Part shown: in pieces, positions 3,765 through 64,000 of the stretch | Layout of the letters: each line of letters starts with the position of its first letter | Position numbering within the stretch: the stretch's first letter is position 1 | NCBI RefSeq assembly: GCF_058153355.1 | Contig: NZ_CM177019.1 | Length of the DNA: 64,000 bases | Reading direction: 5' to 3' (one strand) | Notes under the pieces: generated by a model | The model's input: the letters and a program-made list of their open reading frames with translations, nothing else | What the model was told of the DNA's origin: nothing | Database searches by the model: none | Translations under genes and position numbers: made by a program

Positions 3765-4712
<948 letters not shown>

Positions 4713-4857
4713 TCAGACGATGAATTTTCTATTATAGAAAACGTTCAGTGGCACGTTTGGCGAAATTCAGAATGATTCTCAATTTGCCCGGGTGTGATAC
4801 CATTGACGACACTTACATATATATTGTCGGTATCACCGACGCTGATGGACAGAATTA

Positions 4858-59114: not shown

Positions 59115-61712
59115 TTAAACCGCAGTCTGGAAAATCACCCCATCCGCTTTTTCGGTGTACTGAGAAAGCTGGTTGAAGTTCAGATAACGGTAAGTATCAA
59201 CGGCTGTTTTATCTACCTGCGCCACGTAGGTCTGGTACTCTTCCGGCGTCGGCAGTTTGCCAATCAGCGCCGCAACAGCAGCCAGTTCCGCAGAAGCCAG
59301 GAAGACGTTCGCGCCAGTCCCCAGACGGTTCGGGAAGTTACGGGTAGAGGTGGAAACCACCGTCGCACCGTCTGCTACACGCGCCTGGTTACCCATACAC
59401 AGGGAACAGCCAGGGATCTCGATACGCGCACCACTCTTACCGAAGACGCTATAGTAGCCTTCTTCGGTCAACTGTGCGGCGTCCATACGCGTTGGCGGAG
59501 CCACCCACAGACGGGTCGGCAGCTGACCTTTATGCGCATCCAGCAGTTTACCGGCGGCACGGAAGTGACCGATGTTGGTCATGCAAGAACCGATAAACAC
59601 TTCGTCGATCTTCTCGCCCTGTACCGCAGACAACGGACGTGCGTCGTCCGGGTCGTTCGGTGCACAGAGGATTGGCTCTTTGATATCAGCCAGATCGATG
59701 TCGATTACTGCTGCGTATTCTGCATCAGCATCGGCTTCCAGCAGCTCAGGATTCGCCAACCATTTTTCCATACCCTGAATACGACGTTCCAGGGTACGAC
59801 GATCGCCATAACCTTCCGCAATCATCCACTTCAGCAGGACGATGTTAGAGTTCAGGTATTCAATGATCGGCTCTTTGTTCAGCTTGATGGTACAACCGGC
59901 AGCAGAACGCTCGGCGGACGCATCGGTCAGCTCAAAGGCCTGCTCAACTTTCAGATCCGGCAGACCTTCAATTTCCAGAATGCGACCAGAGAAGATGTTT
60001 TTCTTGCCTTTCTTCTCAACGGTCAGCAGACCTTGTTTGATCGCATACAGCGGAATGGCGTGTACCAGATCGCGCAGGGTGATGCCCGGCTGCATTTTGC
60101 CTTTGAAGCGAACCAGAACGGATTCCGGCATATCCAGCGGCATTACGCCTGTTGCAGCTGCAAATGCCACCAGACCAGAGCCCGCCGGGAAAGAGATACC
60201 GATCGGGAAACGGGTATGGGAGTCACCGCCAGTACCGACGGTATCCGGCAGCAGCATACGGTTCAGCCAGGAGTGGATTACGCCATCACCCGGACGCAGC
60301 GACACACCGCCACGGTTCATGATGAAGTCCGGCAGCGTGTGGTGCGTGTTCACGTCAACTGGTTTCGGATACGCCGCGGTGTGGCAGAAAGACTGCATCA
60401 CCAGATCAGCCGAGAAGCCCAGGCACGCCAGGTCTTTCAGTTCATCACGGGTCATCGGGCCGGTGGTGTCCTGAGAACCGACAGAGGTCATTTTCGGTTC
60501 GCAGTACGCACCCGGACGAATGCCTTTCACGCCGCAGGCACGACCGACCATTTTCTGCGCCAGCGAGAAGCCGCGATCGCTCTCAGCGACATCTTTCGCC
60601 TGACGGAACACATCGCTCTGCGGCAGGCCGAGTGCTTCACGCGCTTTTGTGGTCAGGCCACGCCCGATAATCAGCGGAATACGACCGCCAGCACGCACTT
60701 CATCAATCAGCACGTCGGTTTTCAGTTCGAAGGTTGCCAGCAGTTCGCCGGTTTCGTGGTTACGCACTTCACCTTTGTACGGGTAAACGTCAATCACGTC
60801 GCCCATGTTCAGGTTAGAGACGTCGACTTCGATTGGCAATGCACCCGCGTCTTCCATCGTGTTAAAGAAGATTGGTGCAATTTTACCACCGAGGCACAAA
60901 CCACCGCCGCGTTTGTTCGGTACATGAGGAATATCTTCACCCATAAACCACAGCACGGAGTTAGTCGCAGATTTACGCGAGGAACCGGTACCCACAACGT
61001 CACCCACATAGGCCAGCGGGAAACCTTTCTGTTGCAGAGCTTCGATTTGCTTGATCGGACCAACAACACCCGGCTGGTCTGGCTCAATACCTTCACGCGC
61101 GTTTTTCAGCATCGCCAACGCGTGCAGTGGGATATCCGGGCGTGACCACGCATCCGGTGCCGGAGAAAGGTCATCGGTGTTGGTTTCGCCAGTTACTTTG
61201 AAGACGGTAACGGTCAGTTTTTCAGCCAGCGCCGGGCGATTCAGGAACCATTCGGCATCTGCCCAGGACTGCATTACCTGCTTCGCATATTCGTTGCCTG
61301 CTTTGGCTTTCTCTTCTACGTCATAGAAGTTATCGAACATCAACAGCGTGTGGGACAGTGCTTTGGCAGCAATCGGTGCCAGTTTGGCATCGTCCAGCGC
61401 GTCGATCAGCGGATGAATGTTGTAACCACCCTGCATAGTGCCCAGCAGTTCGATAGCTTTTTCCGGAGTCAGCAGCGGGGATTTAGCTTCGCCTTTGGCG
61501 ACAGCAGCCAGGAAGCCTGCTTTTACATAGGCGGCTTCATCGACGCCAGGGGGAACACGGTTGGTTAACAGATCTAACAGGAATTCTTCTTCGCCCGCGG
61601 GCGGGTTTTTCAGCAGCTCTACAAGTGCGGCCATTTGGTTTGCATCCAGGGGTTTGGGCGCAATCCCCTCAGCGGCACGCTCAGCTACGTGCTTACGGTA
61701 TTCTTCTAGCAC
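59115..61712 (-). CDS. acnB: aconitate hydratase B / 2-methylisocitrate dehydratase
   Basis: ORF track frame 59115..61865; native start is GTG (complement of 61710-61712) giving 865 aa [46 protein letters not shown]..., ends VIFQTAV. Confidence 0.96.
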
Positions 61713-62066
61713 GACGGTTCTCCTCGCTCTCATTGTCATAGTGCGGCAGGCGATTCTCTTCACGCTCCTGTGAGACAGCAGTTTGTAGGGTAAATGCCCA
61801 GTACCGCAACGGGCAGAATAGCAGGATTTTGACGATGTGTTAATCTGTTTACAAAAAAGCAACATAAAAAAGTGGCTGAATCGTTAAGGATAGTCTAGAG
61901 ATTGTTTCCCTCCGTAAAAACCTCGTTAATTCGCATGGTGATAATCACCTTTCTCAACAAAACCCAAGATTAGTCAAAATTTAAACTACCGCCTCTTTAT
62001 ACTCGGATTCACAGCACCTGCGGGTGGCAGTTCGCCGACCATTGCGATTTCCTTGAGATCCGAATT

Positions 62067-63917
62067 ATGAAAATGACTTTGCCGTTTAAACCCCATGTGC
62101 TGGCACTAATTTGCAGTGCCGGGCTTTGTGCCGCCTCTGCCGGGCTATATATAAAAAGCCGCACACATGAAGCGCCTGTGGAACCGCAATCGACACAACT
62201 GGCTGCGCCTGACATCACCGCAGTTACGCTTCCTGCAACGGTTTCCGCACCGCCCGTAACGCCCGCCGTCGTTAAAACCGCATTCAGCACTGCGCAAATA
62301 GATCAATGGGTTGCACCTGTCGCGCTGTACCCCGACTCTCTGCTTTCACAAGTGTTAATGGCATCAACCTATCCGACAAACGTTGCGCAAGCAGTGCAAT
62401 GGTCGCACGATAATCCACTTAAACAAGGCAATGCTACTATTCAGGCGGTATCTGACCAGCCGTGGGACGCCAGCGTCAAATCGCTGGTGGCTTTTCCGCA
62501 ATTGATGGCGTTAATGGGCGAAAACCCGCAGTGGGTGCAAAATCTTGGCGACGCATTTCTGGCGCAACCACAGGACGTAATGGACTCAGTACAGCGTTTA
62601 CGACAACTGGCGCAACAAACGGGGTCGCTGAAGTCATCAACCGAACAAAAGGTCATCACGACAACGAAAAAAGTCGTACCGGCAAATCAGCCCGCTAGCG
62701 CCTCCGCAATACAATCAAATCCCATTTCTACGTCCAGCCCCGTCGTCGCAGGACCTGCACCGACCGTAATAACCATCGAACCCGCCAATCCGGATATGGT
62801 TTATATTCCCAACTACAACCCGACCGTGGTTTACGGGAACTGGGCCAATACTGCGTATCCGCCAGTTTATCTGCCGCCGCCAGCCGGAGAACCGTTTGTT
62901 GACAGCTTTGTGCGCGGATTCGGCTACAGCATGGGCGTTGCTACTACATACGCACTATTCAGCAGCATCGACTGGGATGACGACGATCATGACCATCATC
63001 ATGACGATGATGATTATCATCACCACGATGGCGGTCATCGTGACGGTAATGGCTGGCAACACAACGGCGACAACATCAATATCAACGTCAACAATTTCAA
63101 CCGTATCACCGGTGAGCATCTTACTGATAAGAATATGGCATGGCGGCACAATCCAAACTACCGTAATGGTGTGCCCTATCATGATCAGGATATGGCAAAG
63201 CGGTTTCACCAAACCGATGTCAACGGCGGCATGAGCGCCACGCAGTTACCTGCTCCAACACGCGACAGCCAGCGTCAGGCGGCAGCAAGTCAGTTTCAGC
63301 AACGAACACACGCCACACCCGTCATTACGCGAGATACCCAACGTCAGGCAGCGGCACAGCGGTTTAATGAAGCTGAACACTATGGGAGCTATGACGACTT
63401 CCGCGACTTCAGCCGTCGCCAACCACTGACCCAGCAACAAAAGGACGCCGCTCGTCAGCGTTATCAGTCGGCCTCTCCTGAGCAGCGCCAGGCAGTCCGC
63501 GAGAGAATGCAGACTAACCCGCAGAACCAGCAGAGAAGAGAAGCGGCACGTGAGCGTATTCAGTCAGCCTCGCCTGAGCAGCGCCAGGCGGTTCGCGAGA
63601 AAATGCAGACTAACCCACAGAACCAGCAGCGAAGAGAGGCAGCGCGTGAGCGTATTCAATCTGCCTCGCCTGAGCAGCGCCAGGTGTTTAGGGAAAAAGT
63701 ACAGCAGCACCCACTGAACCAACAGCAACGTGATAACGCCCGCCAGCGTATACAATCGGCATCACCTGAACAACGTCAGGTTTTTCGGGAGAAAGTTCAG
63801 GAGAGCCGCCCACAACGTCTAAACGACAGTAACCATACTGCCAGGCTGAATAACGAGCAACGGTCAGCAGTACGCGAACGTCTCTCTGAGCACGGAGCAA
63901 GGCGACTGGAAAGGTAA
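62067..63917 (+). CDS. yacH: DUF3300 family protein YacH with C-terminal 32-aa tandem repeats
   Basis: 616-aa ORF with signal peptide MKMTLPFKPHVLALICSAGLCAASA, Asp/His-rich tract and repeated ARERIQSASPEQRQAVRE units; position between acnB and lpd. Confidence 0.85.
   Translation: MKMTLPFKPHVLALICSAGLCAASAGLYIKSRTHEAPVEPQSTQLAAPDITAVTLPATVSAPPVTPAVVKTAFSTAQIDQWVAPVALYPDSLLSQVLMASTYPTNVAQAVQWSHDNPLKQGNATIQAVSDQPWDASVKSLVAFPQLMALMGENPQWVQNLGDAFLAQPQDVMDSVQRLRQLAQQTGSLKSSTEQKVITTTKKVVPANQPASASAIQSNPISTSSPVVAGPAPTVITIEPANPDMVYIPNYNPTVVYGNWANTAYPPVYLPPPAGEPFVDSFVRGFGYSMGVATTYALFSSIDWDDDDHDHHHDDDDYHHHDGGHRDGNGWQHNGDNININVNNFNRITGEHLTDKNMAWRHNPNYRNGVPYHDQDMAKRFHQTDVNGGMSATQLPAPTRDSQRQAAASQFQQRTHATPVITRDTQRQAAAQRFNEAEHYGSYDDFRDFSRRQPLTQQQKDAARQRYQSASPEQRQAVRERMQTNPQNQQRREAARERIQSASPEQRQAVREKMQTNPQNQQRREAARERIQSASPEQRQVFREKVQQHPLNQQQRDNARQRIQSASPEQRQVFREKVQESRPQRLNDSNHTARLNNEQRSAVRERLSEHGARRLER
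63450..63815 (+). repeat. 96-bp in-frame tandem repeat (about 3.8 copies) within yacH
   Basis: Units starting 63450, 63546, 63642, 63738; each encodes ~32 aa AR(Q/E)R(Y/I)QSASPEQRQ(AV/VF)RE(R/K)(M/V)Q... Confidence 0.85.
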
Positions 63918-63929
63918 ATTACAGACGTA

Positions 63930-63958
63930 AAAAAAGCGGCGTGGTTAGCCGCTTTTTT
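63930..63958. terminator. bidirectional intrinsic terminator between yacH and lpd
   Basis: aaaaaagcggc-gtggtta-gccgctttttt: hairpin flanked by A-run and T-run, 13 nt after yacH stop. Confidence 0.75.
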
Positions 63959-63987
63959 AATTACCGGATGTCCCGGCACTCGAAGAA

Positions 63988-64000
63988 TTACTTCTTCTTC
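63988..64000 (-). CDS. lpd: dihydrolipoyl dehydrogenase, last 3 codons + stop only (gene continues beyond window)
   Basis: Complement of ttacttcttcttc reads ...K K K stop, matching the Lpd C-terminus as I recall it, plus expected synteny; only 13 nt, so weak. Confidence 0.3.

Follow-up and report, generated by a model that had tools for sequence, protein, structure and literature searches.

Tandem 96-bp coding repeats at the 3′ end of yacH vary in copy number among Escherichia coli strains

Introduction

What kind of element forms the repetitive 3′ end of yacH, and how does it differ from strain to strain? In the 64,000-nucleotide stretch of DNA analysed here (the window; contig NZ_CM177019.1 of assembly GCF_058153355.1), the ORF listing places the yacH coding sequence, 616 codons plus stop, at positions 62067–63917 on the plus strand, between acnB and lpdA, which both lie on the minus strand. 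Of 5,426 complete E. coli genomes, 5,425 annotate the gene as yacH or as encoding a protein with a DUF3300 domain. The gene is responsive to CpxR, and its deletion improves survival in protamine (PMC9600279); its expression is also Rob-dependent (PMC7537768). An initial annotation, made from the letters of the window, had proposed that the last third of the protein is built of tandem 96-bp coding repeats.

Results

The 3′ end of yacH is very likely an in-frame coding minisatellite. Four head-to-tail units of 96 bp, each encoding 32 amino acids, occupy positions 63453–63836; they start at 63453, 63549, 63645 and 63741, all in frame 0 of the yacH ORF, 96 bp being 32 codons. Tandem Repeats Finder describes positions 63453–63804 as 3.7 copies of period 96 with 80% matches and zero indels (score 317–359), and a tighter core at 63453–63684 as 2.4 copies with 88% matches. 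This periodicity exceeds what low-complexity composition produces: codon-shuffled versions of the region give 0.357 ± 0.014 for the in-register match at lag 96, whereas the real sequence gives 0.75, a value that none of 2000 shuffles reached (z 28.5). Thus the proposed tandem repeats are real, and so is their 32-residue unit, the consensus given earlier being unit 2 shifted by one residue. Their extent had been overstated, however, since the array spans amino acids 463–590, or 21% of YacH (25% with a terminal half-unit), rather than a third. A wider Q/R-rich helical region, amino acids 399–616, makes up about a third of the protein. Over its 128 residues the array carries a net charge of +12.

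By type, the units run A-A-B-C and are followed by the terminal half-unit, all on the plus strand. Units 1 (63453–63548; amino acids 463–494, RQRYQSASPEQRQAVRERMQTNPQNQQRREAA; 61.0 bits against the unit HMM) and 2 (63549–63644; amino acids 495–526, RERIQSASPEQRQAVREKMQTNPQNQQRREAA; 64.7 bits) are both type A; they share 86.5% DNA identity, and their codon differences are 9 synonymous and 3 non-synonymous. Unit 3, of type B (63645–63740; amino acids 527–558, RERIQSASPEQRQVFREKVQQHPLNQQQRDNA; 65.9 bits), is 76% identical in DNA to unit 2 and clusters with the third unit of other four-unit alleles. Unit 4, of type C (63741–63836; amino acids 559–590, RQRIQSASPEQRQVFREKVQESRPQRLNDSNH; 62.3 bits), has 62.5% DNA identity with unit 3, or 76% across the first 66 nt, and its likeness to the other units is confined to its first ~22 residues. 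The longest exact in-register runs between units measure 17–22 bp.

The repeated motif extends on both sides of the array. Beyond unit 4 stands a degenerate half-unit, ARLNNEQRSAVRERLS (63843–63890, plus strand; amino acids 593–608), which scores 37 when aligned locally with the first half-unit, shuffled sequences giving 15.6 ± 3.3 (0 of 5000 as high), and which is kept at the C-terminus in most enterobacterial orthologues examined. The two halves of the unit are themselves alike (p 0.005, shuffle test); for the terminal half-unit and for the 19-mer repeated in Superficieibacter the value is p < 0.0002. Upstream, at 63261–63374 on the plus strand, the core motif occurs in two older copies, RDSQRQAAASQFQQR (63261–63305) and RDTQRQAAAQRFNEA (63330–63374), which correspond to predicted helices at residues 399–413 and 422–436. 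This older motif is conserved in all enterobacterial orthologues and resembles the DRDAARQRAQ repeats of Burkholderiales.

Strong 32-residue units were found only in Escherichia. At the same place, Superficieibacter carries 7–8 copies of a 19-residue unit, Cedecea and an Enterobacter carry 3 copies of an 18-residue unit, Burkholderiales have 3–5 copies of a 12-residue DRDAARQRAQ unit, and Salmonella and Citrobacter have a single doublet. The enterobacterial and Burkholderiales DUF3300 proteins examined share, in their C-terminal regions, a core of (R/K)(D/E)xAR(Q/E)R and [ST]PEQRQ that the acidobacterial ones examined lack. The 32-residue unit is probably a doublet of an old helix motif of ~12–19 residues, and Escherichia probably amplified into 3–5 copies the doublet that is single-copy in Salmonella and Citrobacter. 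Candidate copies elsewhere were not borne out. A phmmer search of the 177-residue tail against 1.84 billion representatives gave 23 matches, most of them YacH fragments and the rest sharing only the short [ST]PEQ motif; the E. coli “plasmid” matches are mislabelled chromosomes; and two “phage” matches are weak and partial (~40% identity over less than half the query) and occur in Salmonella records.

Copy number differs among strains, and the length polymorphism suggested by the initial annotation is borne out by alleles with 3, 4 and 5 units. In row samples of 40 and 60 complete E. coli genomes, from which the proportions are drawn, about half have 4 units and ~45% have 3, five-unit alleles being rare. 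The larger sample took 60 rows at even spacing from 5,416 genomes and comprised 32 four-unit alleles, 27 three-unit alleles and one disrupted gene. Gene length follows unit number: genes of 1854 or 1851 bp have 4 units, those of 1758, 1764 or 1719 bp have 3, and a 648-residue protein has 5. K-12 is a four-unit strain, and 55989 and UM146 are three-unit strains. The arrays found are A-A-B-C, A-B-C, A-A-C and A-A-A-B-C, and every change in repeat number seen is in frame. All K-12 laboratory derivatives in the 60-row sample have 4 units, which indicates that copy-number change is slow. A phase-variable contingency locus of the simple-sequence-repeat kind was rejected for the array, given that a 96-bp unit preserves the frame and that the sampled K-12 derivatives are constant at 4.

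The junctions of these alleles hold hybrids of neighboring units. In locus L005, unit 1 is a mosaic of K-12 unit 1 and unit 2; in L003, it is a mosaic of L004 unit 1 and unit 2; and unit 3 of L004 is a B/C mosaic. The three-unit layouts A-B-C and A-A-C both occur within one allelic lineage whose members are 98–99% identical outside the array. We propose that unequal homologous recombination or replication slippage between adjacent units would add or remove whole 32-residue modules with the frame intact, and that such a gain or loss would leave a hybrid unit at the junction. Runs of 17–22 bp do not exceed the minimum commonly cited for RecA to recombine DNA efficiently in E. coli. Because the exact inter-unit runs are only this long, slippage or rare events may be the real route. 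The units had been called similar enough to recombine, which agrees with the hybrid junction units of the 3-, 4- and 5-unit alleles, yet diverged enough to look old. The latter also holds, as even units 1 and 2 are only 86.5% identical and unit types cluster by position across E. coli, the cryptic clades and E. whittamii. Since this grouping by position extends to E. whittamii, the array predates E. coli.

Ahead of the array, Pfam DUF3300 (PF11737) matches amino acids 75–332 (62289–63062, plus strand) with 261.3 bits, where the cutoff is 25, and E 9.1e-78, and in an AlphaFold2 prediction from a 68-sequence alignment residues 71–200 are helical with pLDDT 82–91; no relative was found among the solved structures searched. 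The sole strongly hydrophobic segment, VLALICSAGLCAASAGLYI (62097–62153, plus strand; amino acids 11–29; 2.04 in a 19-residue Kyte-Doolittle window), would be a signal peptide or signal anchor. Amino acids 278–300 were rejected as a second membrane-spanning helix, their hydropathy window reaching only 0.78. Burkholderiales homologues have classic AXA-type signal peptides. From the sequence, we infer that YacH is exported, which would put the tail in the periplasm.

Two neighboring elements were also seen. A His/Asp-rich tract at 62973–63041 (plus strand; amino acids 303–325) is a second short-repeat tract of variable length, with Tandem Repeats Finder periods of 12 and 21 at 62977–63029; E. 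coli alleles differ in it by −12, +2 or −6 amino acids or by ±1 His. Salmonella Typhimurium strains have an 8-bp frameshift deletion in this tract (PMC3391293, PMC10048834), which brings it nearer than the array to the phase-variable contingency loci. Between the convergent yacH and lpdA genes, a hairpin at 63930–63958 with a flanking A-run and T-run (−15.9 kcal/mol; z −3.3 against shuffles) is a probable two-way terminator. The hairpin was missing from a simple terminator scan. An Rfam search for structured RNA in or near the array gave no match. A CpxR box 5′ of yacH was likewise not supported: the sole match, at 61998–62012, has 2 mismatches, and the window-wide count, 68 against 47 expected, is itself uninformative.

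Discussion

The yacH array resembles the coding minisatellites (VNTRs) of bacterial envelope and surface proteins, a class that supplies MLVA markers for E. coli and Shigella. It shares with them head-to-tail units that are multiples of three, strain-variable copy number, hybrid junctions and placement in a presumably exported protein. It differs in that its units are old and diverged (62–87% identity) rather than near-identical, a difference that accounts for slow change in copy number. Our literature search found the array undescribed, and it is none of the MLVA markers checked. A single further E. coli marker, ms11 of the Gorge panel, also has a 96-bp unit; it is a different locus, whose primers (PMC8215070, PMC4644529) are absent from yacH: with up to 3 mismatches allowed, neither is present in the window, and with up to 4 allowed, neither is present at any fetched E. 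coli yacH locus, with only stray matches in other genera.

Two AlphaFold2 runs, one from a single sequence and one from the 68-sequence alignment, predict two short helices per unit, very polar and basic, with pLDDT 65–83, in keeping with the earlier expectation of a helical array. In each 32-residue unit the helices are SPEQRQAVREKMQ and NPQNQQRREAARERIQ, each opened by a Ser/Asn-Pro cap. These helices may only reflect the helical propensity of a disordered chain. Their hydrophobic moment equals that of shuffled sequences, so amphipathic helices packed as a solenoid are unlikely. We favor a model in which the array would form a flexible, multivalent, positively charged helical tail that tolerates 3–5 modules; we suggest tentatively that this tail might bind anionic components of the envelope, or else unfolded or peptide clients.

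It is useful to contrast this tail with a neutral, disordered, low-complexity spacer whose sequence is irrelevant and whose copy number drifts without consequence. Such a spacer would fit the very polar composition, the lack of amphipathicity, the circulation of 3, 4 and 5 units at appreciable or detectable frequency, and the quite different arrays at the equivalent position in other genera. It fits the substitution pattern poorly. The array is under purifying selection (dN/dS about 0.1): its dN/dS of 0.09–0.12 is far under the 0.3–0.67 of the true linkers of YacH, the DUF3300 N-domain having 0.02–0.05. The differences between units 1 and 2 are mainly synonymous, and the core motif is retained all the way from Burkholderiales to Escherichia. 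We therefore regard a neutral spacer as rather unlikely.

DUF3300 proteins are usually encoded as a DUF3300-DUF2950 gene pair; the N-terminal 260 residues of YacH match the family strongly, and a C-terminal RDAARQR-type motif is common to YacH and the Burkholderiales members. In tblastn searches with the DUF2950 protein of locus L076, about 60 non-Escherichia loci, from other Enterobacteriaceae and from Burkholderiales, show a DUF2950 gene 3′ of yacH. The same search found none in the window or in loci L001–L013, and no Escherichia locus examined has DUF2950; nor did the Citrobacter DUF2950 gene match any of 5,426 E. coli genomes (blastn “distant”). Escherichia thus departs from the usual pair in having neither DUF2950 nor the NALSGNDSRSPSW segment, and it alone has the 32-residue array. 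Could its yacH be a decaying orphan, on its way to becoming a pseudogene after the loss of its partner, with the repeat variation as part of the decay? Besides this loss, an IS1 insertion in the yacH of E. coli E69, frameshifts in Salmonella Typhimurium strains, and deletion mutants that are viable and in some assays outperform the parent can be read in this way. However, in 5,372 of the 5,426 genomes the yacH match spans 80% or more of the query, the repeat-number changes seen are all in frame, and the whole gene is under purifying selection between E. coli and E. whittamii (dN/dS 0.10–0.12). Decay is accordingly very unlikely.

A different possibility is that YacH belongs among the periplasmic chaperones of the CpxP/Spy type, its units being LTXXQ chaperone modules. 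The motif SPEQRQ(A/V)(V/F)REK resembles LTPEQ(K/R), with which helices of Spy and CpxP begin, and the distant tail matches P0141 and P0143 are signal-peptide proteins with repeated [LM][ST]PEQ and faint LTXXQ and Metal_resist scores. YacH is like CpxP, Spy and ZraP in having a short polar helix with a T/S-P-E-Q cap, a presumed periplasmic location and a link to Cpx, through its response to CpxR (PMC9600279); it is unlike them in having a tandem array and a DUF3300 domain. Neither PF07813 nor Metal_resist (PF13801) matched the window's tail at E up to 10, or four orthologue tails and the five-unit E. coli allele at E up to 1. PDB fold searches found nothing, and a short helix-cap motif could be convergent. 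Membership in the LTXXQ family is thus highly improbable. A further resemblance is to DUF3106 (PF11304), a family of signal-peptide proteins with repeated [LMS][ST]PEQ(R/K)xx(M/V)(R/K)EK: repeats such as MTPEERAAMREKMQN in P0143 are closely similar to the first half-unit, ASPEQRQAVREKMQ. On the tail in the window, however, every Pfam family falls short of its cutoff, DUF3106 being the best with 12.9 bits against 24.3; the E. coli five-unit allele scores 17.0 and E. albertii 21.6, and the YacH orthologue of Superficieibacter 1612_C1, at 28.6, is the sole sequence to pass.

Finally, although tandem repeats are well known to be misassembled, it is extremely unlikely that collapse or expansion of the array during assembly produced the copy-number differences, since the survey was made at “complete genome” level on an array of just 288–480 bp, three-unit alleles share consistent hybrid units and lineage-specific substitutions, and identical allele lengths recur across hundreds of independent genomes.

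More speculatively, the C-terminal arrays of DUF3300 proteins could all derive from one ancient, so far undescribed periplasmic repeat module, a polar and basic helix built on RDAARQR / [ST]PEQRQ and akin to DUF3106 and possibly LTXXQ. This module would have been re-amplified lineage by lineage, with units of 12 residues in Burkholderiales, 18–19 in several enterobacterial genera and 32 in Escherichia; the Escherichia expansion and the loss of NALSGNDSRSPSW would be an adaptation to the loss of DUF2950, and a copy number of 3–5 would tune an envelope-stress or cationic-peptide phenotype. We assign this scheme a low probability.

The coding minisatellite at the end of yacH is relevant in several ways. 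First, roughly half of the sequenced strains differ from K-12 YacH by a whole 32-residue module, and because of these differences the results of K-12 knock-out and expression studies may not transfer to other lineages. Second, the array is a simple, stable size marker whose variants could be typed by PCR. More broadly, the independent re-expansion of the tail in many genera, together with the loss of DUF2950 at all Escherichia loci examined, offers handles on the role of the DUF3300/DUF2950 pair.

The yacH array is an in-frame minisatellite

The yacH reading frame (62067–63917, + strand, 616 aa) is bordered by acnB (−) and the end of lpdA (−). E. coli records show the same setting and annotate the frame as yacH, "DUF3300 domain-containing protein." Residues 75–332 match Pfam DUF3300 (E = 9e-78), and 5,425 of the 5,426 complete E. 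coli genomes carry the gene. With Tandem Repeats Finder, an array of period 96 is called at 63453–63804 (3.7 copies, 80% matches, no indels), and cuts every 96 nt from 63453 yield four in-frame 32-residue units. The initial annotation had placed tandem coding repeats in the C-terminal third of YacH and would have yielded to periodicity no greater than composition predicts. Because the in-register match at lag 96 (0.75) lies far above that of codon shuffles (0.357 ± 0.014; z = 28.5; 0/2000), the observation of tandem repeats stands, with the array making up 21% of the protein and not a third. The interpretation given with it is supported overall.

Units 1 and 2 share 86.5% DNA identity, with nine synonymous and three nonsynonymous codon differences; identity is 76% between units 2 and 3 and 62.5% between units 3 and 4, and in register, exact matches between units extend for at most 17–22 bp. 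The array is followed by a degenerate fifth half-unit, ARLNNEQRSAVRERLS (aa 593–608), whose similarity to the unit's first half is significant (0/5000 shuffles), and the unit halves SPEQRQAVREKMQ and NPQNQQRREAARERIQ are themselves mutually similar (p = 0.005). The 128 residues of the array include 27 K/R, 15 D/E, and 37 Q/N, which makes it strongly polar and basic. As a class of repeat, it is an ordinary in-frame minisatellite, carried by a putatively exported protein.

AlphaFold2, run on the single sequence and then with a 68-sequence alignment, predicted both times two short helices per unit with breaks at Ser-Pro and Asn-Pro (pLDDT 65–83). We rejected a packed solenoid of these helices, as they show no amphipathicity beyond chance, and we read them as predicted helical stretches, polar in character, along a flexible chain. 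No related solved structure was found for YacH, either by sequence or by fold.

Unit number varies among E. coli strains

The repeats had suggested length polymorphism among strains, and alleles of three, four, and five units were indeed found. Fetched alleles of 1854 and 1851 bp carry four units, and those of 1758, 1764, and 1719 bp carry three, the last two also differing in a His/Asp tract. From protein databases come a five-unit allele of 648 aa and 634-aa alleles with five SPEQR motifs, in which one unit is shortened to 22 aa. Of 60 evenly spaced rows taken from 5,416 ranked genomes, four units were present in 32 and three in 27, and one was disrupted; three and four units were again about equally common in a second, independent sample of 40 rows. 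Every sampled K-12 laboratory derivative has four units, as do O157:H7 strains, and strains 55989 and UM146 have three.

Some alleles depart further from this pattern. A 662-aa protein database entry (P0003), present in 19 contigs including one 4.85-Mb genome, has a separate 45-residue tandem duplication (APVITRDTQRQAAAQRFNEAEHYGSYDDFHDFSRRQPLTQQQKDA, twice) that abuts the 96-bp array on its upstream side; the duplication-prone region is the whole Q/R-rich tail, beyond the array alone. The 1860-bp allele of E. coli AST85 (locus L007, 4001–5860) is strongly divergent (73% protein identity), with 34-aa units (REKVQNQQRPLSQQQRDSARQRIQSASPEQRQAF), a longer N-terminal linker, and a megablast match limited to its first 98 nt. 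It looks like an import from another Escherichia species; the low-coverage yacH class comprises about 1% of genomes. In E. coli E69 (locus L013, 3001–5586), IS1 lies inside yacH, its insA and insB frames recognized by eye at ∼4114–4811, so this strain can do without the gene.

By DNA clustering, units 1 and 2 are type A, unit 3 is type B, and unit 4 is type C, and these types cluster by position in E. coli, the cryptic clades, and E. whittamii. Four-unit arrays read A-A-B-C, three-unit arrays A-B-C or A-A-C, and five-unit arrays A-A-A-B-C. Junction units are mosaic: Unit 1 of the Escherichia locus L005 begins as K-12 unit 1 and finishes as unit 2, unit 1 of L003 joins units 1 and 2 of L004, and unit 3 of L004 joins B and C. 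L003 and L004/L006 are 98–99% identical outside the array and yet differ in layout, which implies that one lineage lost units at least twice, that the K-12-like lineage had another loss, and that units were gained at least once. Such mosaics are expected when adjacent units recombine unequally or slip, and either route may have been taken.

The array is constrained within a variable gene

Across orthologous four-unit alleles, array dN/dS is 0.09–0.12, compared with 0.3–0.67 in two linkers and 0.02–0.05 in the DUF3300 N-domain. Selection therefore constrains the repeat sequence, and we set aside the idea of a neutral spacer. Within the DUF3300 region, a hypervariable Ser/Thr/Pro/Val-rich linker (62667–62762, aa 201–232) separates two conserved stretches. 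In a comparison of the window with a K-12-like allele, this linker has dN of 0.34 and dS of about 0.9, far above the remaining gene. The His/Asp-rich tract DDDDHDHHHDDDDYHHHDGGH (62973–63041, aa 303–325) consists of short GAT/CAT repeats (Tandem Repeats Finder periods 12 and 21) and differs in length from one E. coli allele to another (−12 aa, −6 aa, +2 aa, or ±1 His). In several Salmonella Typhimurium strains, an 8-bp deletion in this tract frameshifts and inactivates yacH (PMC3391293, PMC10048834).

Pre-array yacH (62067–63446) is usually more divergent than acnB between strain pairs, often two- to threefold, with a few pairs reversed. The window's acnB (59115–61712) is 95.8–96.1% identical to common strains and 98.8% to strain 2020CK-00188; judged by sequence, the lineage is a somewhat divergent E. 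coli. A 684-aa open frame (59091–61145, +) runs antisense to acnB. Between the convergent yacH and lpdA, a GC-rich hairpin with an A-run on one side and a T-run on the other (63930–63958; −15.9 kcal/mol, z = −3.3) is a probable two-way terminator, which a simple terminator scan did not list.

Related arrays across the DUF3300 family

A family scan with one genome per species gave 80 loci, in which a four-unit HMM scored 50–65 bits per unit in Escherichia only: E. coli, E. whittamii, two further species, and E. albertii (three units). At the same position, Superficieibacter carries seven or eight copies of a 19-aa unit (RENVQQRLNSxTPEQRQQx), with four copies of a 19-aa unit in one further genus and two in an Enterobacter; Cedecea and relatives have three 18-aa copies (HPTAQQQQHRDAVKNQVK), and Salmonella and Citrobacter have a single doublet (QQHPVSQQQRDTARQRIESSTPQQRQAFRQNMHAN). 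Burkholderiales DUF3300 proteins contain three to five 12-aa DRDAARQRAQ repeats that align to the latter half of the E. coli unit (for the pair, BLASTP E = 0.006). One motif has thus been re-amplified at unlike periods in different lineages. Three record titles look mislabeled: "Chryseobacterium sp. 18061" (L066) has an Enterobacter-like yacH-DUF2950 locus, and two "Bordetella parapertussis" metagenome bins (L075, L079) have generic Burkholderiales DUF3300 genes.

Against Pfam DUF3106, E. coli tails stay below threshold (12.9–17 bits) and E. albertii reaches 21.6, whereas one Superficieibacter tail passes (28.6 bits against a cutoff of 24.3). In a search of 1.84 billion representative proteins, the tail matched few proteins other than YacH; these include some that have signal peptides and recurrent [LM][ST]PEQ motifs, two of which belong to DUF3106. 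The LTXXQ and Metal_resist models had no match on YacH.

In every non-Escherichia enterobacterial or Burkholderiales locus with an intact yacH frame, a DUF2950 gene lies 9–150 nt downstream of the DUF3300 gene; about 60 of the fetched loci L014–L081 have this order, with the downstream family confirmed on one example (Pfam DUF2950, 337 bits). The DUF2950 gene is absent from the window downstream of yacH (63918–64000) and from all Escherichia loci, and a Citrobacter DUF2950 query had no match in 5,426 complete E. coli genomes. A conserved segment, NALSGNDSRSPSW, is also missing from Escherichia YacH proteins.

Implications

One study lists yacH among CpxR-regulated genes and reports better survival of a deletion mutant in protamine (PMC9600279). 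Expression of yacH is reduced in a rob mutant (PMC7537768), and its deletion raises recombinant GFP yield (PMC7376861). No description of the repeat array was found in the literature searched, and a function for the YacH tail is something we infer. The array gains interest from the near-even split between three and four units in E. coli, from one motif having re-expanded independently across the DUF3300 family, and from its coincidence with DUF2950 loss in Escherichia.
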